A program made the translations under genes and the position numbers. DNA of 64,000 bases from NCBI GenBank assembly GCA_040755695.1, contig JBFMAK010000001.1:384637-448636 (forward strand), read 5' to 3'. Below the pieces are notes generated by a model. That model was not told the DNA's origin. It made no database searches and worked only from the letters and a program-made list of their open reading frames with translations. The DNA comes from Candidatus Iainarchaeum sp. (GTDB taxonomy: Archaea > Iainarchaeota > Iainarchaeia > Iainarchaeales > 1-14-0-10-31-34). Below, piece after piece: positions 3,670-47,652 of this stretch (within the stretch, counting starts at the first letter, position 1; each line of letters opens with the position of its first letter).

Positions 3670-4395
3670 TTATACGCTTGAGAGTTCGAAAGAAATTCTC
3701 TCTTTGTCTTTGCCTTTTGAGTCCTTGCCTAAAATTTTAATGAAACCTATTTCAACAGTATTTTTCACGTGTGTTCCAGCGCAAGGGCATTTATCGTAAT
3801 CTTCAATTTCCACAACCCTGATGTCTTTCACGCTTTCAGGAAGCGAAGCAAAAAGCCTTCTTCTTTTTTCTTCCACCTCCTCTAAAACTTTCTCTCTTGT
3901 GCTCCAGTAAATCCTGATTTCCTTTTCTTGCCTTACTGCTTCATCAAATTTCTGCTTTAATTTTTCAAGCATTTCCTGCGAGAATTTGATTGGATGGAAG
4001 TCCATTCTCGAGACTTTCTCGTGAATCTGGTTGCCTGCAGTAGAAGCACCATAAAGGTCTAATATGATAGCTGAAAGCAAGTGCTGGGCTGAATGCATTC
4101 TCATCATTGAATGCCTTCTCTCCCAATCCAGAAATAATTTAACTTCAGCGCCTTTTTCTGGAAGCAAACCTTCAATGAAGTGCTTTATTCTTCCTGCCTC
4201 TTTTTTTGCTGCTTTCACTCTGGATTTAATTCTTTTGAATTCAATGGACCCTGAATCCGATTCCTGGCCTCCACCTTCTGGGTAGAAGATCGTTGCATCC
4301 AATTCAATCCATTTCTCTCCTGCATTCACTTCAATTACTTTTGCTTTTGCTTCTTTCAAATAAGAGTCTTCAAGGAACAATTGCTTTGTTGCCAT
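3670..4395 (-). CDS. alaX: alanyl-tRNA editing protein AlaX-M
   Basis: Zinc-binding editing-domain motifs HSAQHLL (HxxxH) and CPCAGTHV (CxxxH). Likely start is MATKQ at 4395; the listed ORF is extended upstream. Confidence 0.7.
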   Translation of the reverse strand: MATKQLFLEDSYLKEAKAKVIEVNAGEKWIELDATIFYPEGGGQESDSGSIEFKRIKSRVKAAKKEAGRIKHFIEGLLPEKGAEVKLFLDWERRHSMMRMHSAQHLLSAIILDLYGASTAGNQIHEKVSRMDFHPIKFSQEMLEKLKQKFDEAVRQEKEIRIYWSTREKVLEEVEEKRRRLFASLPESVKDIRVVEIEDYDKCPCAGTHVKNTVEIGFIKILGKDSKGKDKERISFELSSV

Positions 4396-5031: not shown

Positions 5032-6894
5032 TTAGAGTTCCTCCCTTATTTCTGTTGTTTGCACGTGCTTCTGTTGTTCGTACATTTTAATTATTTCTTT
5101 TTCTGTTGTGGCTTCCTCGGGCTTCCTGTCAACCCTAATCGAAATCATTCTCGGAAACCTCAAGGCGAAGCCTAATTCTTTTGTCTTGCCTGCAGTGTGA
5201 ACAGGGCTTTTAGTAATCTCGTCTGCTCTCACTTCAATGACATACTTTGGTTCAACCCAGAAGTCTGGCTCCAGTTCAGAATTAACTCTCGCAGGCTTGT
5301 GCGAAGCCTTTATTTTGCTCAGTATTTTCTCTAATTCAATCATTTTTTCTTCTGTCATTCCTGTTCCAATCTTTGCAATGCTCTTGAACTCGTCTTTTTT
5401 GTCATCGTACACTGCAGTGAGCAATGCGCCTAGGCCGAATTGGGTTCTCTTTCCTCTTCCCTTGTAGTATCCAATAATTACTGCGTCCACTGTGTCGCTT
5501 AATTCCCCTTTATAGGAACGCTTTAGTTTAATCCAGGCGAATTTTCTTGCTCCAGCAATGTATTTTGCGTTCAGGTCTTTTGCTATGATGCCTTCAAGGC
5601 CTCTCTGCACGCATTCCTCGAAAAAGGCATTGATTTTTTTTGGGTCGTCTGTTACAATTGATTCTGTAAGCTCTATTGTTTCGCCTTTCTTTATTATTTC
5701 TTCCAACAGCTTTCTTCTTTCTTTGAATGGCTCGTTCATGAAATTCTTTCCGTTAAGCATCATTACATCGAACACGAAAAGTTTTAATGGGAACTCCTTT
5801 GCCTTCTCCCCTATCTCGTATTTTCTTTTCCTTTGGATTGTCACCTGGAACGGAAAGAATTCTCCTGTCTCCTCGTTTACTGCAAGGGCTTCACCTTCTA
5901 TTACTGCGGCCTCTGCCTTCAACTGCTTTTTCACTCCTTCAACTATTTCAGGGAACATTTCTGTCATGTTCTCCTGCTGCCTTGAAAAAATAATTATTTT
6001 GTCTTTGTTTTTGTGCACAGCCAACCTAAATCCATCGTATTTTGCTTCTACAGCACATTTCCCTATTTTCTCCAAGATCTCTTCTGCTGAAGGCAGCCTT
6101 TCTGCTAAGGTCGGCCTTATTGGAATTCCAGGCTCAATTGAAATCTTCTCCAATCCACCTAACCCCTTTTCTTTTAGAATGCGTGCTATTTCGCCTAAAT
6201 CAGAATAAATATTGTATTTCTCTTCTATCCTTTCTCTTAAGGCAACCTTTATTCTCCTGTTCAATTCTTCATTCCATTCCTTTTCCTTTATTTTTTTGTC
6301 TTTCATTTGGGCTTCAATCCTTTTCACTAATTCCTTTTCCTTTTTTCCTTCCTCCACCAAGCTCAAGGCAAAGGAATCCATTATTGTTGGATCGCCAATC
6401 CCAAGCCTTAAATTTTCCAAGGGAATTCGCGCAATGAATTTTGCTTCCAGTGGAAGAGCAGAATTCAATAGTTCTGCCATAAGCTTCAATTTGAGTTCCT
6501 GACTTCCTGGGCCTTCTGCTTTAGCAATTTTCAATAAATTATCAAAAACTTTTTTCACGCTCAATTTCTCTTGAAATAAAGAAGACTGCTTTTTCTTTGC
6601 AACAAGGGCTTCTGCCACAAGGCCCAGATCGCCTTTCTCTTTGAACTGCTTTTCTATTTCATGCCTTGTGTAGCCTGAAGCCTTTGCAAGGGCATCCATC
6701 AACAGTTTTTCTCCTAAACCTGCCTCAACCTTTGCATAATTAGGCCCAAGCTGGCCTTGAGAAAGATAGACAACATTCTTTATGTTCTCCGAGTCAGTTT
6801 TACTGAATAATTCTGCAAGCAGGTCAGTCATCTTCAAGCGCTCTGAAGCCCTTTCAATCTTGTCAAAGTATTCAGCCAGCAATTCAAAATGCAT
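5032..6894 (-). CDS. lig: ATP-dependent DNA ligase
   Basis: Adenylation motif I KYDGFR is present. 620 aa. Domain order matches archaeal/eukaryotic ATP-dependent ligases. Confidence 0.9.
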   Translation of the reverse strand: MHFELLAEYFDKIERASERLKMTDLLAELFSKTDSENIKNVVYLSQGQLGPNYAKVEAGLGEKLLMDALAKASGYTRHEIEKQFKEKGDLGLVAEALVAKKKQSSLFQEKLSVKKVFDNLLKIAKAEGPGSQELKLKLMAELLNSALPLEAKFIARIPLENLRLGIGDPTIMDSFALSLVEEGKKEKELVKRIEAQMKDKKIKEKEWNEELNRRIKVALRERIEEKYNIYSDLGEIARILKEKGLGGLEKISIEPGIPIRPTLAERLPSAEEILEKIGKCAVEAKYDGFRLAVHKNKDKIIIFSRQQENMTEMFPEIVEGVKKQLKAEAAVIEGEALAVNEETGEFFPFQVTIQRKRKYEIGEKAKEFPLKLFVFDVMMLNGKNFMNEPFKERRKLLEEIIKKGETIELTESIVTDDPKKINAFFEECVQRGLEGIIAKDLNAKYIAGARKFAWIKLKRSYKGELSDTVDAVIIGYYKGRGKRTQFGLGALLTAVYDDKKDEFKSIAKIGTGMTEEKMIELEKILSKIKASHKPARVNSELEPDFWVEPKYVIEVRADEITKSPVHTAGKTKELGFALRFPRMISIRVDRKPEEATTEKEIIKMYEQQKHVQTTEIREEL

Positions 6895-6961: not shown

Positions 6962-7684
6962 ATGGCGAAAATAATTCTGGTCGTGAATGTTCATCCATCC
7001 GAAACAGCATTCACAGTGCCTTTGGCTACTTACTTAAAATCAAATCTAAAAAGAAGAGGGCACGAAGTAGAAATTATTGGGGTGCCGCCAAAAAAGACTA
7101 TTTTGTATCAAGTGCAGGAAGCCGCAAAAGCAGGAACTAAAATTCCTTATCATTCCATGTTTGAACCTTCAGATGAATTTATTGTGAAGTTAGCGTCACA
7201 AAATCCTAAGTCATATATTTTTGACATTCATTGTGGCCCTCATTATTATTTAAACAGAAATAACAAAAAAATCAAAAGAGTATCAGCTGGCCTTTTAGAT
7301 CCTAATAGTCCTGGTTATCCTCCTTTAAATAGGGACAAAAAAAATATTGAAATAACCCCTTACAGCTTTTATCCTCCAAATTATTTTTGTGTTGAGGCTA
7401 TCGCCGTATTTAAAGAAGCTCCAGAAAAACTAAAAGCATTATTAAAAAGCATTAAGTGTCAGGGTTTGATATTTAAAGACCCCGAACTTTGGTTTGGAAA
7501 AATTGTAGACTTGAAAACTACCAGAAAAGCAGGCTATTTGTCTGACACAATTGTCAGAAAAGTTGCACACCAAATAGACAGTTTAGTTCAGACAAGAGAA
7601 GGAAGATACAGGAAAATTAATCTGAGATTAAGAAGACTGCGCGATAAAAGAAAAATTAAGCGCCAGAAAAAATTCAGAATTTAA
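6962..7684 (+). CDS. hypothetical protein, possible zinc hydrolase (AstE/AspA/M14-like HxxE...H)
   Basis: Motifs NVHPSE (HxxE) and DIHCGPH. Highly basic C-terminus. Confidence 0.3.
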   Translation: MAKIILVVNVHPSETAFTVPLATYLKSNLKRRGHEVEIIGVPPKKTILYQVQEAAKAGTKIPYHSMFEPSDEFIVKLASQNPKSYIFDIHCGPHYYLNRNNKKIKRVSAGLLDPNSPGYPPLNRDKKNIEITPYSFYPPNYFCVEAIAVFKEAPEKLKALLKSIKCQGLIFKDPELWFGKIVDLKTTRKAGYLSDTIVRKVAHQIDSLVQTREGRYRKINLRLRRLRDKRKIKRQKKFRI

Positions 7685-8899
7685 TTGTCTTTAAGAAGCC
7701 ATTTCCACGCAGGCTTTACTGTTATTTTTTTGTTTTCTATTCTTAATTCATCTTCTTGGTCGTATGCCAGTATTAAGCCCTCCTTTAACTTGAATTTTTC
7801 CATTGCTTCCATTATTCCATTAATCTCTCTTTCTTTGTTGTCTTCATCAACTTTAAAGCACACCTGAATTGCCTTTGTAATTTTTTCTTTTTCTTTTACA
7901 AGGAAATTGCATTCGTTTTTTTCCTTAAAATAAAAAATATCATTATATTTTTTTCTTAATTGAATAAAAACCAAATTTTCAAGCATTCTTCCATTGTCTG
8001 CCGAGAAAGAAGCTGAATTAACAGTGGATAATCCATTGTCTATGGAGTAAACTTTTTTTGCACTGACTAATTGTTTTTTAAGTGAGTAATCAAATCTTGG
8101 AACTGTAAATAAAAGATAGCTGTCTTCAAAATAGGAAATAAATGAGATGGCAGTGTTTACTGAACCTAAGTTAAAGGTCTTTTTTAGGCTGTTGTAAGAA
8201 AATTCTTTGCCGACATTTGTAAGCAGGTATATAGCCATTTCCTTTACTGTTTTTAGGTTCTTTAATTTATATCTTACCATAATGTCTCTTGCAATTATAT
8301 CATTCAATAATTCTTGCAATATTTCAGATTTGTCGTATTTGAGATATTCAGGAAAGCCTCCTTTAATGAGATAACCTTCAAAAGAACTTAAATCAGCTTT
8401 TTTGCCAGTAAACGTCAAGAATTCCTTAAAAGAAAATGGAAAAAGTTCACAACGCAAATGTCTCCCGGTAAGTCTTGTTCCCAATTCTTTGCTAAGAAGA
8501 GATGCATTAGAACCAGTAATGACAACATATTTTTTTTTTATCTAGAATTGCCCTTACAAAAAGCTCCCATTTACCAACATTTTGAATCTCATCAAAAAAA
8601 TAATAATTACTTTTGCCGAATTCTTCCACAAAAACTTCATTAAGTTTTTGAAAATCTCTTACATCAAAATCAACAGTTCTAGGATCCTCAAAATTAAAAT
8701 AATATGACTTCTTTATTTTTTTCATTAACTGCCTTAATAAAGTGCTTTTCCCGCATCTTCTGGCCCCAGACATGACTAACGCAAAGGAGGCCCTTAAATC
8801 TATTTGTTTGAGTTTTTCTCGTTCTATTCCATAATCACTTTTCAAAATCTCGGTATTCTGTGTTTTAACTATGCTTCTTAAGGTTTCTTTCAACATCAT
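7681..8899 (-). pseudogene. AAA ATPase (AAA_14 + DUF4143 family) disrupted by homopolymer frameshift
   Basis: The N-terminal ORF (8507..8899) carries Walker A GARRCGKST and ..DEIQ. The C-terminal ORF (7681..8484) continues the family (GTRLTGR...ELFPFSFKEF). Frames differ at an A10 tract (T run 8530..8539). Removing one A gives ...DKKKYVVITGSNASLLSKELGTRLTG, matching the intact paralog at 53724..55025. Confidence 0.6.
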
Positions 8900-9320
8900 A
8901 ATAATATATGTTCAATATCAGTATATAAATCTTTTCATTACTAATGAAAACTTATGTTCATTTTAAATGAACAACTTTGCCGCACGTAAAAAATTAGCTT
9001 TTTTGCCTTTTACAAACAGTTATGTTATTCCCAACAATTACTTTAAAATGGGTTCGCATTAAATAATTCTATTGATTTAAAATGCAAAGTGAGCTACTTC
9101 CACTGCCAAAAACATGCTAATTCTCTTAATCCAAGCCTTTTCTCTTTTAAAAAAAGAGAAAAGTCTACGGTCTATCCAAAAGAGAAAAATAAATTTGTAA
9201 TTAATAATTCAATTATCAATAAAAACAATTGCAACGAATTAATTCTTACTTCAAAAGCGAAGCAAGTACTACCAAGCAAAGCGCAGGTAGTACACCGGCG
9301 TCAACTGACTGAACGGTTGA

Positions 9321-9502
9321 GGGGTTGTAGTCTAGCCTGGTCAGGACTCTGGCTTTGGGACGGACCCTTTTCTTTTTTAGAAAAAAAGAAAAGTGTTACG
9401 TTATCCCAAAAGAAAAAAGGGGTTAGTTACCCCAAAAAAGAAAGGGATTGTTTTTTGTCCGCAAGAAAGCCAGTAACGGGGGTTCAAATCCTCCCAACCC
9501 CA
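9321..9502 (+). tRNA. tRNA-Pro(TGG) with 108-nt intron at canonical 37/38 position (intron 9360..9467)
   Basis: Acceptor GGGGTTG/CAACCCC+A. D-arm GTCT-AGCCTGGTCA-GGAC. Anticodon stem CTGGC...GCCAG. Loop TT-TGG-G|intron|A. T-arm GGGGG-TTCAAAT-CCTCC. Intron ends are complementary (CGGAC/GTCCG), consistent with a BHB splice motif. Confidence 0.65.
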
Positions 9503-9576
9503 CTCGAACCATTAAATGGTTCAATATTACAGCAATTCAATAATGCACGTAGTGCCAGCTGCCAATAGCAGCTGTA

Positions 9577-9604
9577 GGAGGTATCGGAACCGCAAGGTTC
9601 TGAT
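9577..9604 (+). promoter_or_regulatory. Conserved 28-nt hairpin motif GGAGGTATCGGAACC-GCAA-GGTTCTGAT (copy 1 of 3)
   Basis: Palindrome GGAACC/GGTTCT with a GCAA loop, immediately upstream of tRNA-Ser. Near-identical copies at 17544 and 26338(-). Confidence 0.5.
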
Positions 9605-9606
9605 TT

Positions 9607-9776
9607 GCGGAGGTGGCGGAGTGGTCCAACGCACCAGCTTGGAGCCTGCCCCTTTTTCTTTTTAAAAAAAAGAAAAAGCGGCAAGTTGCCGGAAAAAGAA
9701 AAAGGTTTTGGTGGCCGGATAGCTGGCGAGCGCAAGCTCACGCGAGTTCGAATCTCGTCCTCCGCGTCCGCCCTTT
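9607..9776 (+). tRNA. tRNA-Ser(GGA), class II, with 76-nt intron (9645..9720)
   Basis: Acceptor GCGGAGG/CCTCCGC+G. Anticodon stem CCAGC...GCTGG. Loop TT-GGA-G|intron|A. Long variable arm CGAGCGCAAGCTCAC. T-arm GCGAG-TTCGAAT-CTCGT. The intron contains a palindrome plus mini-repeat copy. Confidence 0.6.
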
Positions 9777-9869
9777 TTCTTTCTTTCCAAAAGAAAGAAA
9801 AAGTGCAGGTTGCCCAAAAAGAAAGAAAGCGGCAAGTTGCCCAAAAGAAAAAAAATAAAGTTGCAGTTG

Positions 9870-10022
9870 GGGGGGGTAGTCTAGCTTGGTTAGGATTTCA
9901 GCTTGGGGTAAGCCCCTTTTCTTTTTTCCAAAAAGAAAAGGCCTTTGGGTTCAAAAGAAAAAACCTAAAAAAGGAAGGCTTCCAATATGCTGACGACCCG
10001 AGTTCGAATCTCGGCCCTCCCA
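9870..10022 (+). tRNA. tRNA-Pro(GGG) with 79-nt intron (9909..9987)
   Basis: Acceptor GGGGGGG/CCCTCCC+A (one G-U pair). D-arm GTCT-AGCTTGGTTA-GGAT. Anticodon stem TCAGC...GCTGA. Loop TT-GGG-G|intron|T. T-arm CCGAG-TTCGAAT-CTCGG. Intron ends pair as AAGCC/GGCTT. Confidence 0.6.
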
Positions 10023-10266
10023 CTCTGCCCCTTTCTTTCTTTTAAAAAAAGAAAGAAAGTGGTAAGTTGCCCCAAAGAAAGAAAAGAAAAGTGCAGGTTG
10101 CCCAAAAGAAAAATGGTGAAAGTTTACAGTCCATCCAAAAGAGAAAAAGCATAGGTTGCAATTTAATTCCAAAAGGAATTAAATGCACATTAAAACCGAA
10201 AGGTTTTAATCGTACCCCAAAGAAAGAAAATACAATTAAATATAAGTTTCAATTAAGGTTTTAATC

Positions 10267-11748
10267 ATGAAAGAAAAAGGCAGTGAAAAGGAAGAGAAGG
10301 TTACTTTCAATATTGACAAGGAAAAGAATTTCTCTGAGTGGTTCACTGAAATAATAAAGAGGGCTGAACTGGCTGACTTAAGGTATAACGTGAAAGGCTT
10401 TATTGTATTCCAGCCTTGGAGTGTTATTTCAATGGAATTAATGTATGCTGAATTGGAAAGGATTCTGAGAATGAAAGGCCATAAGCCTTACTGGTATCCT
10501 GCAGTAATACCTGAAAGCAATTTCAAATTAGAGAAAGAGCACGTTGAAGGATTTGCCCCTCAAGTTTTCTGGGTTACAGAGACAGGCGCAGGAGAAAAAT
10601 TGGAGGAAAGGCTTGCTTTAAGGCCTACTTCAGAAACTGCATTCTACCAAATGTTTGCTTTATGGATTAGGAGTTACAAAGACCTGCCTTTCAAGTCATA
10701 CCAGAGAGCCCAGGTCTTCAGGTACGAGACAAAAGCCACAAGGCCTTTCCTTAGGAGCAGGGAAATTTATTGGATTGAAAGCCATAATGCTTTTGCCTCA
10801 AGAGAGGATTCAATTAAACAAGTGAAAGAAGACATGCAGTCAACAAAGGAATTATTGTATGATTTCCTCTGTGTGCCATTCATTTTCTTTGAGAGGCCTC
10901 AGTGGGACAAGTTTGCAGGGGCAGAATCAACTTATGCTGCTGATTCCTTAATGCCTGACGGAAGGGTAGTGCAATTGCCTTCAACCCATTTGTTGGGGCA
11001 GAACTTCTCCAAGCCATTCAATATTACTTTCAAGGACGAGAAAGGTTCTGATCAGTACGTGTGGAATACGTGCTATGGGCCTGCTGTGAGCAGGATTTTT
11101 GCTGTAATGATGGCAATACACGGAGACAATAACGGCTTGGTTTTTCCTTTTACTGTTTCTCCAGTGCAGGTAATAATAATTCCAATTTTTGATGAAAAGA
11201 ATAAAGAAAAAGTTTTGGCTGAAGCAGAAAAGGGCAGGAAGGAATTGAGTGAATTGGATTTGAGGGCTGAAATAGATGCAGGAGAAGAAAGGCTGGGGGA
11301 CAAGCTTTACTTCTGGGAGATGAAAGGCATTCCCCTGAGAATTGAATTAGGGGAAAAGGAATTAAAGGGGAAGAAGGCCCTCTTGTTCAGGAGAGATACA
11401 AAAAAGAAGGAATTGGTTGCATTGAATGAATTGAAGAAAAAGATTCTGGCTGAAGGAAGGAATTTGAATGAAAGCCTTAGAAAGAAAGCAGAGAAATTCT
11501 TACAGGAATCAATTGTTGAAGCAAAAAGTATTGAAGAAGCAAAGAAACTTGTGCAGAAAGGAAAGATTGCAAGAGTGGAATTCTGCTCTATTGGGTTGGA
11601 TGCAGTTAAATGTGCTGAAGCAATAGAAAAGGAAGCGCAGGCCTCAGTTAGAGGGAAAAGAATTGACTTGGAAGAGAAAACCAAAGGCAATTGCATTGTG
11701 TGCGGCAAAAAGGCTTCTGTTATAGTGTACATTGCAAGGTCTTATTAA
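10267..11748 (+). CDS. proS: prolyl-tRNA synthetase, archaeal/eukaryotic type
   Basis: Class II aaRS motifs are present (FRYETKATRPFLRSREIYWIESH..., GxG motif 3). 493 aa with a C-terminal zinc-binding CxxC...CxxC. Lies directly downstream of two tRNA-Pro genes. Confidence 0.85.
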   Translation: MKEKGSEKEEKVTFNIDKEKNFSEWFTEIIKRAELADLRYNVKGFIVFQPWSVISMELMYAELERILRMKGHKPYWYPAVIPESNFKLEKEHVEGFAPQVFWVTETGAGEKLEERLALRPTSETAFYQMFALWIRSYKDLPFKSYQRAQVFRYETKATRPFLRSREIYWIESHNAFASREDSIKQVKEDMQSTKELLYDFLCVPFIFFERPQWDKFAGAESTYAADSLMPDGRVVQLPSTHLLGQNFSKPFNITFKDEKGSDQYVWNTCYGPAVSRIFAVMMAIHGDNNGLVFPFTVSPVQVIIIPIFDEKNKEKVLAEAEKGRKELSELDLRAEIDAGEERLGDKLYFWEMKGIPLRIELGEKELKGKKALLFRRDTKKKELVALNELKKKILAEGRNLNESLRKKAEKFLQESIVEAKSIEEAKKLVQKGKIARVEFCSIGLDAVKCAEAIEKEAQASVRGKRIDLEEKTKGNCIVCGKKASVIVYIARSY

Positions 11749-16171: not shown

Positions 16172-16245
16172 TGGGGTTGCAGGGATTTGAACCCTGACAT
16201 CTTGGTCTGGAGCCAAGCGCGCTACCAGGTTAACGCCACAACCCC
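16172..16245 (-). tRNA. tRNA-Trp(CCA)
   Basis: Reverse complement is GGGGTTGTGGCG...CTTGG-CTCCAGA-CCAAG...GGGTTCAAATCCCTGCAACCCCA. 74 nt, no intron. Confidence 0.75.
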
Positions 16246-17543: not shown

Positions 17544-17570
17544 GGAGGTATCGGAACCACAGGTTCTGAT
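17544..17570 (+). promoter_or_regulatory. Conserved hairpin motif GGAGGTATCGGAACC-ACA-GGTTCTGAT (copy 2 of 3)
   Basis: Lies in the divergent intergenic region between 17344..17529(-) and 17628..18941(+). Confidence 0.5.
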
Positions 17571-17627
17571 TTTTAGGATAGAAAAACAGAAAATATTAAA
17601 TTGAGTAATGGCGTTATTTAATGCAAT

Positions 17628-18941
17628 ATGAAGGTTCTTTCAATAATTTTGTTTCTGTGTTTCATGCTGGGCCTTGCGGGAGCCATCTCCTCCCAGGAGG
17701 CAAAGGATTTCCTTACAAGCGAAAGCCATTTCCTGGAGGAAGGGCAGAGCATTGAAATCCTGCCCAATTTTCCAGTGCAATACAATAAAGAGAAGTTCTG
17801 GGTTGCAGTCATAATTACAGAAGAGAGCCCTAGCGGCTTCCTTGCAGTGAAATACTCTGCAAAAGAGATTTCGCTTAATAAGACAGCAAACACAGAATTA
17901 TTCAAGACAGTCTATGTTTTAAGGTCACTGAAAGACTACAAGGAAAAAAATTCTGCTGTCTGGGTTTTTGCGAGCTCAAACAAGACCTTCTTCCAGACCC
18001 TCAATTCTGTCACCTCAGGCTCAGGTTCAGTTTATTATACTCTGGGAAACATTTCAGACGAATTAAATACTTCTGATGCCAGAACCCTCACAAACGAAAT
18101 GAGTGCAATCCTCTCCGAGATGAGCTCAAGGGCTTTCACCTTAGAAGAAAAAACAGACGAAATAATCAAGGTAGAAAACGATTTTGTTAATTCAACCAAT
18201 ACAAGCCAAACAAATGCATTGAAAGAAAAATATGATGAATTCTTTCCCTTGCTTGAAGAAATAAACAGCTTAAGGCAGGACTACGAAAACAAGACTGTTG
18301 AGTTAAAGACCTTAATCTCCAAATCAGACAAGACGGCAGGAGAAAAACAGCAGTTGATTGCGCTGGCGAGTTCTCCTCAGGAATTCCAGAAACTTGACTC
18401 AATAGCAAAAAATTCTTCTGACTTGTATCAAGGCATCCAGTCCATTTACGCTAAAGCCATTTCAAATGTCTCGACATGGGTTGACAACGTTGACTCAATG
18501 AAGAAAAGGAATGATGCCTACAACCTGCTTTACTCTGATGACCCTGATTTGTACAAGAAAACAAAAAACTATTTCTCCAAGCTTAACGATTTAGTGAAGT
18601 TTATTCTGGATGAAAACAACAAGCCTTACTGGAAAGAATATGAAAAAATTGACTCAATGCAGTCCAACTGGAATAAGGCAGAATTGAACTTCAAGCAGAA
18701 AAAATACGAGAACGTGCAAACTTATGCCTTGAAGGCAAAGAATGACGCAGTAACCATATTCCAGGGAGGCTTTGTGCAGCAGGGAAGCGACATGCAAAAT
18801 CTGATTATTTACATTGCGGTAGGATTAATTGTACTGCTTGTTGCGCTCATGCTCTTCAAGAACAGGAACAAGCTCTTCCCGTCTCCAACGCAAGCGCAAA
18901 AAGAACAGGAAATAATCCCTTACGGCTGGCAGAAAAGCTGA
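17628..18941 (+). CDS. hypothetical secreted protein with N-terminal signal peptide and C-terminal TM anchor
   Basis: N-terminus MKVLSIILFLCFMLGLAGA. C-terminus LIIYIAVGLIVLLVALMLF followed by basic residues. Confidence 0.45.
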   Translation: MKVLSIILFLCFMLGLAGAISSQEAKDFLTSESHFLEEGQSIEILPNFPVQYNKEKFWVAVIITEESPSGFLAVKYSAKEISLNKTANTELFKTVYVLRSLKDYKEKNSAVWVFASSNKTFFQTLNSVTSGSGSVYYTLGNISDELNTSDARTLTNEMSAILSEMSSRAFTLEEKTDEIIKVENDFVNSTNTSQTNALKEKYDEFFPLLEEINSLRQDYENKTVELKTLISKSDKTAGEKQQLIALASSPQEFQKLDSIAKNSSDLYQGIQSIYAKAISNVSTWVDNVDSMKKRNDAYNLLYSDDPDLYKKTKNYFSKLNDLVKFILDENNKPYWKEYEKIDSMQSNWNKAELNFKQKKYENVQTYALKAKNDAVTIFQGGFVQQGSDMQNLIIYIAVGLIVLLVALMLFKNRNKLFPSPTQAQKEQEIIPYGWQKS

Positions 18942-22184: not shown

Positions 22185-22287
22185 TCATGCCACCGTTCAT
22201 TAATTAAGATTTTTGCCTCAAAATGGTTTAAAAACCTTTTCGGTTTTTAAATTTTTAAAAAATAAAATATTTTTTAAATTGATTTAA

Positions 22288-25650: not shown

Positions 25651-26337
25651 TTATTTCTCTTTCACGTTCCAGCTCTTCCTGTGCTCTCTGTCTTTGGATT
25701 CTTCTCGGGCCAGCTTTGCAATAACGCTTGCAGCGCCTATTACTGGCTCTAAGTCGTCGCCTTTCACTATGAATTCAACGTGCTTTAATGTCCCATTCAG
25801 TCTGCTGCCGTCAGCCTTAACCTTTGCCTTTACCCCTAATTCATCAAAGAGCAGTACAAGATTGTTTATTATTCTGACTTCAATTTCATTCAAGTTCAGT
25901 CCATTATTCCTTAACTGGTCTATGAGCCGGGAATTCAAAGAAACAGTTGCTACTGCAAGGGCGTTCCCTGAAACAATTTCAGCTTTCTCTTTTAGGTTGC
26001 CTGTCTTCTTGCTGTCCCTCAACTCTCTTAACTTATTGCTGTCGCCCAAAACAAAGCTTACAACAAAAGAGCCAAAGCTTTCCCCTCTTCCAGCCTCATC
26101 AATGCCTAAAACCAGTTCTTCTTCCAAACCCATCCTCTGCAAGATTTCCTCAGTGACCTTCTTGCAGTCATTGCCCTGTACTACAAGCTTTCCTGAAGAG
26201 TACAAGGTTACAGTGCAATTGCCTGCCTTGCACCTCAATTCCTCGAAGGCATTCTTTGTCTCCACCTGAGGGAATTCCCTGAGGATTTCAATCAATTGCC
26301 TTTTCTGCTTTGAACCAAAGTTAAGAACCTTCTCCAT
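25651..26337 (-). CDS. rnhB: ribonuclease HII-family protein with ~75-aa N-terminal extension
   Basis: GIDEAGRG catalytic motif, DSK, and GDD...VIGAASVIAK C-terminal motif. Confidence 0.55.
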   Translation of the reverse strand: MEKVLNFGSKQKRQLIEILREFPQVETKNAFEELRCKAGNCTVTLYSSGKLVVQGNDCKKVTEEILQRMGLEEELVLGIDEAGRGESFGSFVVSFVLGDSNKLRELRDSKKTGNLKEKAEIVSGNALAVATVSLNSRLIDQLRNNGLNLNEIEVRIINNLVLLFDELGVKAKVKADGSRLNGTLKHVEFIVKGDDLEPVIGAASVIAKLAREESKDREHRKSWNVKEK

Positions 26338-26364
26338 ATCAGAACCTGCGGTTCCGATACCTCC
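26338..26364 (-). promoter_or_regulatory. Conserved hairpin motif GGAGGTATCGGAACC-GCA-GGTTCTGAT (copy 3 of 3), abutting the rnhB start codon
   Basis: The minus-strand sequence reads ...GGGAGGTATCGGAACCGCAGGTTCTGAT-ATG. A degenerate partial copy (GGAGGCTCGGAACCATACTTCC) lies about 17 nt further upstream at 26381..26403. Confidence 0.5.
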
Positions 26365-26480
26365 CTTAATTTTATTTTATGGGAAGTATGGTTCCGAGCC
26401 TCCTTTTTCCATTTTAATAGCATATTTATTATTAAAGAAAATGGTTATATATTGTACTGAAAAAAAAATTAATTCTTTAG

Positions 26481-33566: not shown

Positions 33567-33642
33567 AACTAATTCTGGCTTTGGGCCTTCATAGCCCGAA
33601 AACGATAGGTTTTTAAATATCATGATACTATCATGATACAGC

Positions 33643-34146
33643 ATGAATGCTCATGATGAATTCATTGAGTTATTAAAAAGCAAGGAGCTTATTGAGAAGG
33701 TAAGCCCTAAATTCAATGAACTCACCCTTGACATTCAGCAAGTGTTTGAGCACAGCAAAAACCCTTTGCTTTTTGGGGCACTGCTCTTCAAGTTGGCTGA
33801 AGAGAGAGACAAGACAAACAAGCTCTTAGAGCAACTGAACGACAAGTACGACAAAATAATGTTTGAATTAAAAACCAAGACTTTGGGTGAATCTGTTGAT
33901 CAAACTCCTCGAATAGAGCAAAAATTAGCAGTAGGGGCAAATAAAATTGTTTTACTGCCTGAACAGGACCAGAAAATTTTAAGGTTGATAGAAGAAAAAG
34001 GGCCTTCAAGCGCTGAAGCAGTCCAGTCAATGCTTTCCTATAAAGGAAAGAATGCTGCGTGCCAGCGCCTAAATAAATTGTCCAGAGAAGGATTGCTCAG
34101 GAAAATACAGTCAGGAAAAAAAGTCCTGTTTTTCGTGCAGAAGTAA
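33643..34146 (+). CDS. hypothetical protein with C-terminal winged-helix-like segment
   Basis: ...ACQRLNKLSREGLLRKIQSGKKVLFFVQK. Confidence 0.35.
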   Translation: MNAHDEFIELLKSKELIEKVSPKFNELTLDIQQVFEHSKNPLLFGALLFKLAEERDKTNKLLEQLNDKYDKIMFELKTKTLGESVDQTPRIEQKLAVGANKIVLLPEQDQKILRLIEEKGPSSAEAVQSMLSYKGKNAACQRLNKLSREGLLRKIQSGKKVLFFVQK

Positions 34147-47581: not shown

Positions 47582-47652
47582 TTCCCTCTGCCCCTTTCTC
47601 TTTTTAAAAAAAAGAGAAAGTGGTAAGTTGCCCCAAAGAGAAAAAGAAAGGT
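47582..47652 (+). repeat. Solo copy of the palindrome + mini-repeat element seen in the tRNA cluster
   Basis: ctctgcccctttctctttttaaaaaaaagagaaagtggtaagttgccccaaagagaaaaagaaagg is nearly identical to 10016..10088, including the CTCTGCCCC tRNA-trailer-like left end. Confidence 0.65.

Follow-up and report, generated by a model that had tools for sequence, protein, structure and literature searches.

Archaeal bulge-helix-bulge (BHB) introns, which canonically interrupt tRNA genes between positions 37 and 38, are excised by the splicing endonuclease EndA, after which RtcB ligates the exons. The tRNA-Trp introns of Haloferax and other Euryarchaeota are about 100 nt long and carry a box C/D small RNA. 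A U.A-U RNA triple helix lies next to a tRNA-like structure in MALAT1/ENE. The tRNA introns of archaea and eukaryotes have been described as 'less than 100 nt', and in the Thermoproteales similar transposed introns occur in many non-homologous tRNAs of one lineage, a distribution that points to intron spread and gain (PMC4033280). Intrastrand triplex motifs are known from the bacterial BoxC/PIT/TM_ECO repeats (Hoyne and Maher 2000; Holder et al. 2015, PMC4666352). In the class II motif a pyrimidine stem, a loop, a purine stem, a second loop and a purine reverse-Hoogsteen stem follow one another on one strand, and such purine-motif triplexes form in DNA and not in RNA (PMC4666352). TM_ECO, with the consensus CCCTCNCCC-N3-6-GGGNGAGGG-N3-GGGNGAGGG, is G/C-rich and nearly invariant, has 3-nt second loops and shows neither strand bias nor a link to particular genes (PMC4666352). 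Our literature search found no description of intrastrand triplex motifs in archaea, in tRNA introns or at gene ends; nor were triplex motifs in archaeal tRNA genes, or long or repeat-bearing tRNA introns in Diapherotrites, found described.

The window considered here, the whole 64-kb stretch of DNA that was analysed, belongs to a MAG of Candidatus Diapherotrites, a DPANN archaeon, and contains three clustered tRNA genes on the + strand, as the first-pass annotation had proposed. ARAGORN in intron mode calls them at 9321-9503, 9606-9769 and 9869-10023; default ARAGORN calls none of the three, and Rfam matches tRNA-Ser alone (160-nt match, 9607-9766, 43.5 bits). Once the introns are deleted at 37/38, ARAGORN folds each into a correctly typed cloverleaf, namely Pro(TGG) of 74 nt, Ser(GGA) of 84 nt and Pro(GGG) of 74 nt. 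The exons lie at 9321..9359 (positions 1-37) and 9468..9502 for tRNA-Pro(TGG), at 9607..9644 and 9721..9766 for tRNA-Ser(GGA), whose second exon includes a long variable arm, and at 9870..9908 and 9988..10022 for tRNA-Pro(GGG). No further gene for Pro(TGG), Ser(GGA) or Pro(GGG) was found within the 64-kb window. The three therefore have the appearance of functional archaeal tRNA genes, although splicing itself is unobserved in the absence of expression data. The cluster has a direct repeat on both sides, and its position is rearranged relative to relatives. Since both proline tRNAs escape default ARAGORN and Rfam, the locus presents a problem of the 'missing tRNA' type, which has been reported for DPANN genomes (PMC5829648).

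The introns occupy 9360..9467 (108 nt, Pro(TGG)), 9645..9720 (76 nt, Ser(GGA)) and 9909..9987 (79 nt, Pro(GGG)) on the + strand, in exact agreement with the lengths first given. Their complementary ends had been taken as a sign of BHB motifs, and all three genes pass a strict test of hBHBh' geometry (5/4/5) that demands a 5-bp anticodon stem, a 4-bp central helix, two 3-nt bulges and a 5-bp outer helix. The outer and central helices are CGGAC/GTCCG and TTTG/CAAG in Pro(TGG), CTGCC/GGTGG (with two G.U pairs) and TTGG/CCGG in Ser(GGA), and AAGCC/GGCTT and TTGG/CCAA in Pro(GGG); the GCC/GGC pairing noticed originally in tRNA-Ser is thus part of a longer helix. These introns resemble canonical EndA-cut introns in position, geometry and exon structure, but they are longer and consist of shared rather than unique sequence. 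Their length arises because each contains one copy of a repeat element of about 55-60 nt. The description of the introns as unusually long holds against the general archaeal norm and fails within the lineage, where long introns are the rule: ARAGORN calls introns of 113 and 119 nt in tRNA-Trp of relatives and of up to approximately 165 nt on related contigs, and tRNA-Pro(TGG) introns of relatives measure about 36-88 nt. Conversely, the tRNA-Pro(GGG) orthologues of three relatives are intron-less, and tRNA-Trp of the window genome lacks the intron present in its relatives. Short antisense copies of the element are present in the tRNA-Trp introns of relatives. The window introns share their length, canonical site and a second structured element with the box C/D tRNA-Trp introns. 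However, neither a C box (RUGAUGA/TGATGA) nor a D box (CUGA) is present in any of the three, the element has no Rfam match, and a box C/D small RNA inside the introns was therefore rejected.

The element consists, in order, of (CTG)CCC, a pyrimidine tract (Y), a short loop, a purine tract (R) that is the reverse complement of Y, a linker with the consensus GTGYAAGTTGCCC, and a third tract, again of purines (T3). All seven copies in the window, like 67 distinct copies that were parsed, have tracts of 10-18 nt. A profile HMM finds seven full copies in the 64-kb window, all on the + strand (E 1e-11 to 1e-15), and no comparable match elsewhere within it; a repeat of seven such copies is far beyond chance. 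A 15-mer search allowing 3 mismatches, by comparison, gave 13 matches against 9 expected and did not rise above chance. The AT-rich perfect palindromes noted earlier are perfect hairpins of 12-14 bp with 3-nt loops, and the mini-repeat of about 30 nt corresponds to a linker-plus-purine-tract unit of 22-33 nt that recurs in introns and spacers.

Three copies lie within the introns. That of Pro(TGG) spans 9365-9422 and is followed by a linker-and-tract unit reaching to about 9447; that of Ser(GGA) comprises Y 9649-9663, R 9664-9678, linker 9679-9690 and T3 9691-9705; and that of Pro(GGG) comprises Y 9913-9929, R 9930-9941, a divergent linker at 9942-9952 and T3 9953-9963. Upstream of the cluster by approximately 130 nt, a copy with divergent prefix and linker is located at 9133..9192 (Y 9136-9148, R 9149-9163, linker 9164-9177, T3 9178-9189), and its 3' unit (9164-9190) recurs at 10119-10148, so that the repeat brackets the tRNA cluster. 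The tRNA-Ser 3' trailer contains a copy at 9770..9859 that starts 4 nt past the 3' end (Y 9771-9788, R 9789-9803, linker 9804-9815, T3 9816-9829) and continues into one extra linker-and-tract unit (9830-9855). A further copy, at 10025..10148, starts 2 nt past the 3' end of tRNA-Pro(GGG) (Y 10028-10043, R 10044-10059, linker 10060-10073, T3 10074-10091) and leads into more linker-and-tract units, forming an array that reaches the proS promoter region. The seventh copy, at 47588..47651 on the same strand, lies in a divergent intergenic region directly before the BRE/TATA-like sequence AAAGGTTTAAAT. It is close to the 10025 copy in sequence, with C/G positions moved coordinately in all three tracts.

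That coordination extends to the element as a whole, and it is a feature that the first-pass annotation, which correctly saw palindromes and mini-repeat in the introns, had overlooked. T3 is the parallel complement of Y and hence the mirror of R. The parallel complement is exact at zero offset in 53/67 distinct copies, as compared with 5.2 exact fits on average, and never more than 15, in 2000 trials in which partners were permuted. Among the 35 asymmetric tract patterns, 27 follow the parallel relation exactly and none is a direct repeat (p = 1.5e-8). Positions of the minority base coincide in 86/95 cases, and in only 10/171 when T3 is reversed. Within the window all seven copies obey the relation between Y and T3, six as parsed and the Ser-intron copy after two leading Gs are omitted, the latter fit being our own reading of the parsed sequences. 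T3 matches Y as a parallel complement at 14/14 positions in the 9770 copy and 12/12 in the 10025 copy, against 8/14 and 8/12 for a direct repeat. Watson-Crick folding leaves T3 unpaired, and a switch in which T3 would serve as an alternative Watson-Crick partner of Y was rejected, as none of the 35 asymmetric patterns fits it.

The three tracts thus co-vary as a triple-stranded structure would need, although triplex formation itself is unobserved. The element meets both published requirements for class II, namely the order of the parts with stems of at least 8 nt (PMC4666352) and a mirror relation allowing A.A-T and G.G-C triplets in register. By sequence, the sense strand carries the class II (pyrimidine, purine, reverse-Hoogsteen purine) intrastrand triplex motif, and the opposite strand carries the class IV pyrimidine motif. 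A low-complexity coincidence or an assembly artefact, with the tRNAs as pseudogenes, might be suspected from the A/G and C/T runs that make up the tracts and from the failure of default tRNA finders to call the genes. Such an origin is effectively refuted by the perfect cloverleaves and BHB motifs, by recurrence of the element's architecture on some 70 independent contigs drawn from many samples, and by the covariation statistics, which exclude chance.

The archaeal element has the same one-strand class II layout as BoxC/PIT/TM_ECO, and both are short, dispersed, multi-copy and non-coding. It differs from TM_ECO in being A/T-rich, with variable, co-varying tracts and a conserved second loop of 12-14 nt, and in its strictly sense orientation, its abutment to gene ends and its occupation of tRNA introns. 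By its predicted structure, it belongs to the same class as TM_ECO/BoxC/PIT and is not a member of that sequence family. The antisense order (U-rich tract, stem-loop, U-rich tract, loop, A-rich tract) also reproduces the U.A-U topology of MALAT1/ENE, and both are physically linked with tRNA processing sites. However, in the element this order lies on the strand opposite the tRNAs and genes, a strand that would not ordinarily be transcribed, and the resemblance is one of topology only.

A pattern scan of metagenomes gave 75 loci, with about 73 further copies, on about 70 contigs of related archaea from many samples. The element is common to a clade of Diapherotrites-like archaea; it is kept across genomes whose proteins are just 50-72% identical to those of the window. 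The pattern gave no matches in shuffled versions of the window. Because the linker, the prefix and the two ends of the stem were set in advance in this pattern, their conservation is partly by construction; T3, position and orientation were left free. A linker-anchored pattern scan of a genome contig collection returned only six unrelated bacterial matches. On viral contigs a looser pattern gave 40 loci, none of which fits the element profile and which are therefore regarded as noise; a viral link was rejected, none having been found.

The genomic context was established for 89 copies in a census of 606 kb containing 71 tRNA genes. Twenty-six copies lie within tRNA introns, all in the sense orientation and beginning at the 5' splice site, in genes labelled Ser, Tyr, Glu, Cys, Asn, Gly, Pro and Phe (ARAGORN labels, which are approximate), and another 16 begin 0-6 nt past a tRNA 3' end, again in sense. 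RNase P RNA and 5S rRNA are each followed by a single sense copy at a distance of 0-1 nt from the 3' end, and one copy lies within a 23S rRNA insertion. Among the 44 remaining copies, 14 begin just past the stop codon (0-2 nt) of an ORF of 60 codons or more in the same orientation, compared with 4% of random positions. One copy was called antisense, and that call is doubtful. The element is therefore a gene-end module, sense-oriented at RNA 3' ends, stop codons and 5' splice sites. The idea of a small element colonising tRNA introns and flanks is borne out and was, if anything, understated, given its presence in many tRNAs on about 70 related contigs; tRNA sites are indeed occupied, but the element is not tRNA-specific, and its strict orientation had gone unnoticed.

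The 26 intronic copies constitute homologous intron sequence in non-homologous tRNA species, a likeness to the Thermoproteales-type introns. Unlike the latter, which occupy many non-canonical sites, the introns of the window and those passing the BHB test all lie at 37/38, with no non-canonical positions or several introns per gene; they belong to a DPANN lineage, and their shared sequence, of triplex-type architecture, is also common at gene ends beyond the tRNA genes themselves. A further difference from canonical BHB introns is that the 5' end of the repeat supplies the outer helix. In the Ser intron the 5' strand of this helix, paired with GGTGG, is the element's own 5' end CTGCC (9646-9650). 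Under the strict test just five metagenomic introns were recovered, and in each of them a CTGCC or TGCCC end of the element likewise forms an outer-helix strand; a relaxed test yielded 23, some of implausible length, and was used solely for the identity of the outer-helix strand.

Many copies in many unrelated contexts are also what would be expected of a mobile repeat of REP or MITE type that is non-autonomous, purely selfish and without a host role, its hairpin and triplex being recognised by an unknown transposase or recombinase or by a single-stranded DNA intermediate, and its copies surviving just at harmless sites past gene ends and in spliced introns. Presence and absence at orthologous sites (the tRNA-Pro(GGG) and tRNA-Trp introns), arrays of partial units resembling decayed older copies, and the bracketing of the rearranged tRNA cluster by a direct repeat are all compatible with this, as is the situation in bacteria, where repeats with intrastrand triplex motifs are associated with genome instability without any function having been demonstrated for them (PMC4666352). 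The element shares with REP/BIME a short palindromic multi-copy form, a location just downstream of genes and frequent arrays, but no RAYT-like transposase has been identified, the third mirror tract is unmatched in REPs, and the archaeal copies lie within 0-2 nt of gene ends and are present in introns. Without a systematic search, neither a target-site duplication nor a terminal inverted repeat nor an associated transposase gene was noticed, and inspection by eye showed no target duplication at the site where the tRNA-Pro(GGG) intron was presumably gained. Moreover, random insertion followed by purifying selection predicts neither a strict sense orientation downstream of genes nor the placement of copies within 0-2 nt of stop codons and RNA 3' ends. 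Three-way compensation has been kept in 37 tract patterns in genomes with 50-72% protein identity, which implies long-term selection on individual copies. A purely selfish origin is therefore considered rather unlikely, but it remains a serious contender.

Strict sense orientation, together with sites in processed segments (introns, 3' trailers and 3' UTRs), raises the speculation that the element acts as RNA. It could be co-transcribed in sense and freed by RNase Z on its 5' side or by EndA as a circular intron, giving a stable small RNA, or a hairpin that shields the upstream 3' end or the 5' end of the downstream mRNA in the manner of bacterial REP hairpins. Known cleavage sites (5' splice site and RNase Z site) fall at the 5' boundary of the element, and archaeal introns are known to circularise (PMC3326292). 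Nevertheless, in sense RNA the order Y, R, R is the purine motif, and RNA is reported not to adopt it (PMC4666352), so that an RNA model leaves the covariation of T3, the strongest signal, unexplained. In addition, no Rfam family was matched, and the mismatches in the Y:R stem (T:G 9, C:A 5, C:T 2) show no excess of the G.U-compatible type on the sense strand; at 9 G.U against 5 C.A, they do not identify the selected strand or molecule. Action as RNA is thus possible, but doubtful.

Downstream of the cluster, proS (10267..11748, + strand; NCBIfam proS_fam_I, 486 bits against a cut-off of 437) encodes a prolyl-tRNA synthetase 100% identical to 'MAG: Candidatus Diapherotrites archaeon proline--tRNA ligase'. 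It starts 244 nt past tRNA-Pro(GGG), and element units occupy the gap. The grouping of tRNA-Pro with its synthetase gene, pointed out in the first-pass annotation, recurs in two relatives (L002 and L059), in which tRNA-Pro(TGG) lies upstream of proS, and is absent from two others (L001 and L003). Analogous units exist for tRNA-His, element and hisS at two loci and for tRNA-Ile, element and ileS at one; the grouping is partly supported, and a regulatory link has not been shown. Repeated units of tRNA, element and cognate synthetase point to a simple way in which very small genomes might couple the expression of tRNA and synthetase. If the element acted as RNA, it would form the 5' leader of the synthetase mRNA in such units.

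True split tRNAs, as in Nanoarchaeum equitans, have long complementary leaders. It could be asked whether the A-rich tracts are promoter or UP-like elements, so that the repeat is a terminator-plus-promoter cassette or the tRNA halves are transcribed separately as split tRNAs. Copies 47588 and 10025 finish directly before BRE/TATA-like sequences, and several others lie 17-50 nt ahead of a start codon. However, the visible TATA-like boxes sit past the element and not inside it, intronic copies are followed by 10-30 nt without such a box before exon 2, and the mirror covariation is unaccounted for. The outer BHB helices, at 5 bp, are also far shorter than true split tRNA leaders. A promoter role was rejected on the position of the visible TATA-like box, and separately transcribed halves on the short helices and the lack of an internal promoter; this whole reading appears very improbable.

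On balance, a sense-oriented, triplex-type gene-end repeat that acts as a boundary or attenuator and has been carried into tRNA introns is the best explanation overall, one that we favour with little more than even confidence; its function as a boundary element or attenuator, as opposed to a selfish repeat, is inferred. The T-rich Y arm directly past the gene end may act as an archaeal oligo-T pause or termination signal. The expected sense T-run past the gene end is present, in that Y starts about 6 nt after it and contains T-runs of 3-7. As transcription unwinds the DNA, the sense, non-template strand could fold into a hairpin and a purine-motif triplex or, alternatively, a U-rich RNA tract could be laid onto the T3 duplex. 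The result would be a leaky boundary or attenuator between a highly transcribed RNA gene and the next gene, possibly exemplified by tRNA-His and hisS, tRNA-Ile and ileS, and tRNA-Pro and proS. Ordinary gene ends in the window also have C/T-rich T-runs, and they lack the element, so that it was rejected as the generic terminator of the genome. A sense T-run that terminated transcription within the introns of essential, apparently single-copy tRNA genes would be harmful, suggesting that termination is weak or conditional, or that this part of the mechanism is wrong. At three loci (L076, L096 and L120) the next start codon lies merely 17-30 nt from the element, a spacing that suggests read-through rather than termination. 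Together, the intronic copies and this spacing argue against complete termination. When the bacterial counterpart PIT/TM_ECO was tested, it showed neither promoter nor terminator activity (PMC4666352).

With regard to history, copies of the element may have entered the spliced intron as the sole site within a gene where added sequence is harmless, after which the constant 5' end, (C)TGCC, could have been recruited as part of the outer BHB helix. From introns the element may then have spread among non-homologous tRNAs, and the tRNA-Pro(GGG) intron was possibly gained in the lineage of the window genome. More speculatively, and with only tentative support, the element may be a functional nucleic-acid triple helix, a transcription-coupled switch made of a DNA triplex or an RNA-on-DNA triplex, which in Diapherotrites-like archaea would delimit tRNA, rRNA, RNase P RNA and protein genes at their 3' boundaries and would have been carried into tRNA introns. 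If so, it would set the level at which transcription proceeds into the next gene, also where a tRNA is followed by the gene for its own aminoacyl-tRNA synthetase, and the three-way covariation would be the first evolutionary proof of an intrastrand triplex under selection in cells.

For annotation, a model of the repeat element would recover tRNA genes hidden by introns of this kind. For intron evolution, one repeat family is found both outside genes and as the canonical intron body of many tRNA species, and the use of a repeat end as part of the splice motif offers a concrete route to intron gain and growth. For triplex biology, the formation and relevance of intrastrand triplexes in vivo have been open questions since the PIT/BoxC work. 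In these archaea, dozens of natural variants hold a Hoogsteen-type register through coordinated changes in three tracts, with a clear polarity and position relative to genes, and the question of whether such triplexes occur in vivo may therefore now be testable.

The window derives from a DPANN archaeon, and its prolyl-tRNA synthetase (ProRS), encoded by proS at 10267-11748 on the plus strand, is 100% identical to the NCBI protein 'MAG: Candidatus Diapherotrites archaeon proline--tRNA ligase'. Upstream of proS, ARAGORN in intron mode recovers three plus-strand tRNA genes, at 9321-9503, 9606-9769 and 9869-10023. Default ARAGORN reports no tRNA in 9300-10030 and misses all three, and Rfam detects a single tRNA in the cluster (a 160-nt match, 9607-9766), missing both tRNA-Pro genes and matching no family besides tRNA in the region. 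Intron mode labels the first gene Ser(tga), because its heuristic sets introns a few bases off; once the introns are removed at the canonical position, 37/38, ARAGORN reads the spliced sequences as Pro(TGG), Ser(GGA) and Pro(GGG). The intron lengths agree with those of the first-pass annotation (108, 76 and 79 nt, respectively), and the bulge-helix-bulge (BHB) splice motif that it proposed at the intron ends is upheld, with a full pass in 3/3 genes under a fixed geometry of 5-bp anticodon stem, 4-bp central helix, two 3-nt bulges and 5-bp outer helix. The G+C content is 34-41% in these introns versus 58-67% in the exons, and no box C/D motif was found in the three introns. The ORF listing for 9321-10023 includes spurious entries of 81-159 aa. 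As tRNA genes, the three are new members of a kind already known.

Three contigs encoding a ProRS 65-66% identical to that of the window (L001, L002 and L003) keep the gene order 3' of proS. Comparison of orthologous tRNA-Pro loci, a check suggested earlier, places a 37/38 intron of about 36-88 nt in tRNA-Pro(TGG) of all three relatives and none in their tRNA-Pro(GGG); since the latter intron is absent from all three, it represents either a gain in the window lineage or a loss in that of the relatives. The window tRNA-Trp(CCA) (16172-16245, minus strand) has no intron, and in two relatives ARAGORN calls tRNA-Trp introns of 113 and 119 nt (L001 2299-2483; L003 1304-1514) with several T-run/A-run hairpins of the same kind as in the window introns. 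In the window, three ORFs (6962-8899) separate the DNA ligase gene from the tRNA cluster, at a place where L002 has nothing: one of 240 aa on the plus strand, and two adjacent ones on the minus strand (7681-8484 and 8507-8899) that resemble one gene broken in two. This segment may be inserted or decaying.

Each window intron contains a perfect 12-14-bp hairpin with a pyrimidine arm (Y), a 3-nt loop and a purine arm (R), followed 3' by a short linker that contains G+C and then by another purine tract (T3). A profile built from these copies of the element places seven full copies on the plus strand of the 64-kb window and none on the minus strand. Three of them are intronic, one per tRNA gene; of the other four, one starts in the 3' trailer, 4 nt past the tRNA-Ser 3' end, one starts 2 nt past tRNA-Pro(GGG), one lies some 130 nt 5' of the cluster and one is at 47588 in a distant divergent intergenic region. 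Two copies are prolonged by extra linker-plus-tract units, giving short arrays that fill spacers. Plain T-runs, and not the element, mark the ordinary gene ends of the window; the element was therefore rejected as a generic terminator of this genome. A direct repeat of 27-30 nt, at 9164-9190 and 10119-10148 (TCTACGGTCTATCCAAAAGAGAAAAAT and TTTACAGTCCATCCAAAAGAGAAAAAG), flanks the whole three-tRNA cluster, and the relatives' tRNA-Pro(GGG) lies elsewhere, beside glycosyltransferase genes; for these reasons the cluster looks to have been assembled by rearrangement, possibly with element copies as the recombining sites.

A second conserved motif, GGAGGTATCGGAACC-nnn-GGTTCTGAT, combines a Shine-Dalgarno-like GGAGGT with a hairpin of variable loop bases. 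It abuts the tRNA-Ser 5' end (9578-9604, plus strand), recurs at about 17555-17585 (plus strand) some 45 nt upstream of the plus-strand ORF at 17628, and, with a degenerate second copy beside it, sits against the start of ORF 25651-26337 on the minus strand (motif at 26338-26365, same strand); in L003 it lies in reverse orientation just 3' of tRNA-Trp (about 1515-1541). Perfect palindromes occur elsewhere in the window, with an adjacent pair, TTTAAAAACC-TTTTC-GGTTTTTAAA and TTTAAAAAATA-AAA-TATTTTTTAAA, at 22227-22278 within the divergent region 22185-22287, and an intergenic one, TATCATGATA-C-TATCATGATA, at 33618-33638 just upstream of the plus-strand ORF at 33643.

A scan of JGI metagenomes for four anchors only (the constant prefix, the first Y-arm bases, the last R-arm bases and the linker), a pattern with no matches in shuffles of the window, returned 75 loci. 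The full architecture of CTGCCC, Y, loop, R, GTG(C/T)AAGTTGCCC and T3 is present in about 73 of 78 matches, and 13 of the loci encode proteins 50-72% identical to window ORFs, a distance equal to that of the Diapherotrites relatives. Neither viral contigs nor a collection of species-representative genomes yielded anything but noise when scanned.

The minority bases, C in Y and G in the two purine tracts, occupy different positions from copy to copy. In every copy, R is the reverse complement of Y. T3, which the scan pattern left unconstrained, complements Y in parallel: when both are followed 5' to 3' from the shared GCCC prefix, A in T3 stands where Y has T, and G where Y has C, so T3 is a mirror image of R and not a copy of it. 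With no offset allowed, Y and T3 match exactly in 53 of 67 distinct copies, against a mean of 5.2 and a maximum of 15 exact matches when the two were taken from different copies (2000 trials). There are 37 distinct tract patterns, of which 35 are mirror-asymmetric; 27 of these are exact parallel complements, and a direct repeat of R occurs in none (sign test p = 1.5e-8). The minority bases fall at matching positions in 86/95 cases, versus 10/171 with T3 reversed. The mirror rule holds in 7/7 window copies, six of them as parsed; the Ser-intron copy fits, on inspection, only after two leading Gs are set aside. In the closely related copies at 10025 and 47588, one C/G position has moved coordinately across all three tracts. 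T3 is unpaired in ordinary secondary-structure prediction, and we know of no copying mechanism that yields mirror sequences. Hoogsteen-type pairing in a triple helix is the only known constraint that demands them (for background, PMC4666352, PMC11667243, PMC12214015). It is possible that the element instead acts at the RNA level, as a stable or protective RNA, but this would leave the T3 covariation unexplained. Judged from sequence, covariation support for a variant of the intrastrand triplex repeats is unusually clear, and triplex formation itself has not been observed.

Genomic context was surveyed by profile search, which gave 89 element copies in 606 kb containing only 71 ARAGORN-called tRNA genes. 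The sense orientation is found in the 26 copies within tRNA introns and in the 16 that begin 0-6 nt past a tRNA 3' end, in keeping with the earlier suggestion of a small element in tRNA introns and flanks; one antisense intron call is doubtful. Of the remaining 44, 14 begin past the stop codon of an ORF that shares their orientation and has 60 codons or more (4% for random positions), at a distance of 0-2 nt in 13 and 13 nt in one; one begins 0 nt past an archaeal gene for RNase P RNA (L088 769-1160, minus strand), and one 1 nt past a 5S rRNA gene (L108 8935-9107, plus strand). In L003, one typical copy directly follows a glycosyltransferase gene. By inspection, the protein genes preceding the element look unrelated in function. 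The outer BHB helix takes its 5' strand from the element's own CTGCC/TGCCC end in the five strict-pass metagenomic introns and in the window Ser intron. Together, these contexts and the outer-helix role identify the element as a sense-strand module at the ends of all gene types, and also directly 3' of tRNA exon 1. Another of the 44, with a degenerate third tract, is present in L090 (1-1589), where it lies within a roughly 186-nt insertion, possibly an rRNA intron, in a 23S rRNA gene. The tRNA-Trp introns of the relatives end 3' in a short antisense copy, T5-GGCAACTTGCC-T6-CG-A5-GGCAGG, which as RNA would have pyrimidine-motif (U.A-U) order. The first-pass finding is real, and its interpretation essentially right.

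The grouping of tRNA-Pro with proS, also remarked upon at first pass, recurs in part. tRNA-Pro(TGG) adjoins proS in the window (9321-10267), in L002, where it lies directly 5' (5777-6001), and in the relative L059, and does not in L001 or L003. Further, independent pairings occur, in which tRNA-His precedes hisS at two loci and tRNA-Ile(TAT) precedes ileS at one (L096 about 3700-3860, L120, L076), as confirmed by NCBIfam equivalog models. An element copy separates tRNA and synthetase gene in all these loci except L002. Only 17-30 nt lie between element and start codon in the His and Ile pairs, so co-transcription of tRNA and synthetase is likely in the hisS and ileS units. Three different cognate pairs are very unlikely to have become neighbours by chance, so the grouping probably has some meaning in this lineage, with the mechanism not shown.

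The genes and splice motifs, the family with its positions and polarity, and the Watson-Crick and mirror covariation are established here; the function of the element is inferred. Right after a gene end, the T-rich Y tract would be an oligo-T signal of the type that makes archaeal RNA polymerase pause or terminate. The triplex would most probably form in DNA, purine-motif triplexes being a DNA property, and on the sense strand, which is non-template and therefore freed by transcription. Alternatively, a U-rich RNA copy of Y could lay onto the T3 duplex, which would also account for the Y-T3 match reaching the loop-side CC/GG. Under both versions of the triplex the outcome would be a polar boundary, which must be leaky because the element lies inside introns of tRNAs that look essential and so close to the hisS and ileS start codons. 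Introns may be the sole intragenic site at which its insertion is harmless, and after entry its 5' end would have been taken into the splice motif. The foremost rival reading is that the repeat is purely selfish, with a structure that serves to propagate the repeat itself; the boundary, selfish-repeat and RNA-role readings overlap, and are not separable on present sequence evidence.

The sense strand of the element has the order of the class II intrastrand triplex motif (pyrimidine stem, loop, purine stem, loop, mirror purine stem), its complementary strand matches the class IV pyrimidine motif, and the layout is that of the bacterial BoxC/PIT/TM_ECO repeat (PMC4666352). Purine-motif triplexes form in DNA and not in RNA, whereas pyrimidine-motif ones are possible in RNA; TM_ECO is without strand bias, showed neither promoter nor terminator activity, and has no known function apart from an association with genome instability (PMC4666352). 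In contrast to the bacterial repeat, the archaeal element is A/T-rich and strictly oriented, has variable, co-varying tracts and a long, conserved second loop, and is bound to gene ends and tRNA introns. That one intron sequence is spread over many tRNA species is reminiscent of the tRNA intron transposition described in the Thermoproteales (PMC4033280, citing Fujishima 2010), but introns with the element lie at the canonical site. A literature search found no paper on this element, on long Diapherotrites introns or on triplex motifs in archaeal tRNA genes. The element is thus put forward, its function being inferred, as a new archaeal variant of the bacterial intrastrand triplex repeats, gene-end-linked and intron-resident. 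Under standard annotation settings, genomes of the Diapherotrites lineage will seem to lack tRNAs.
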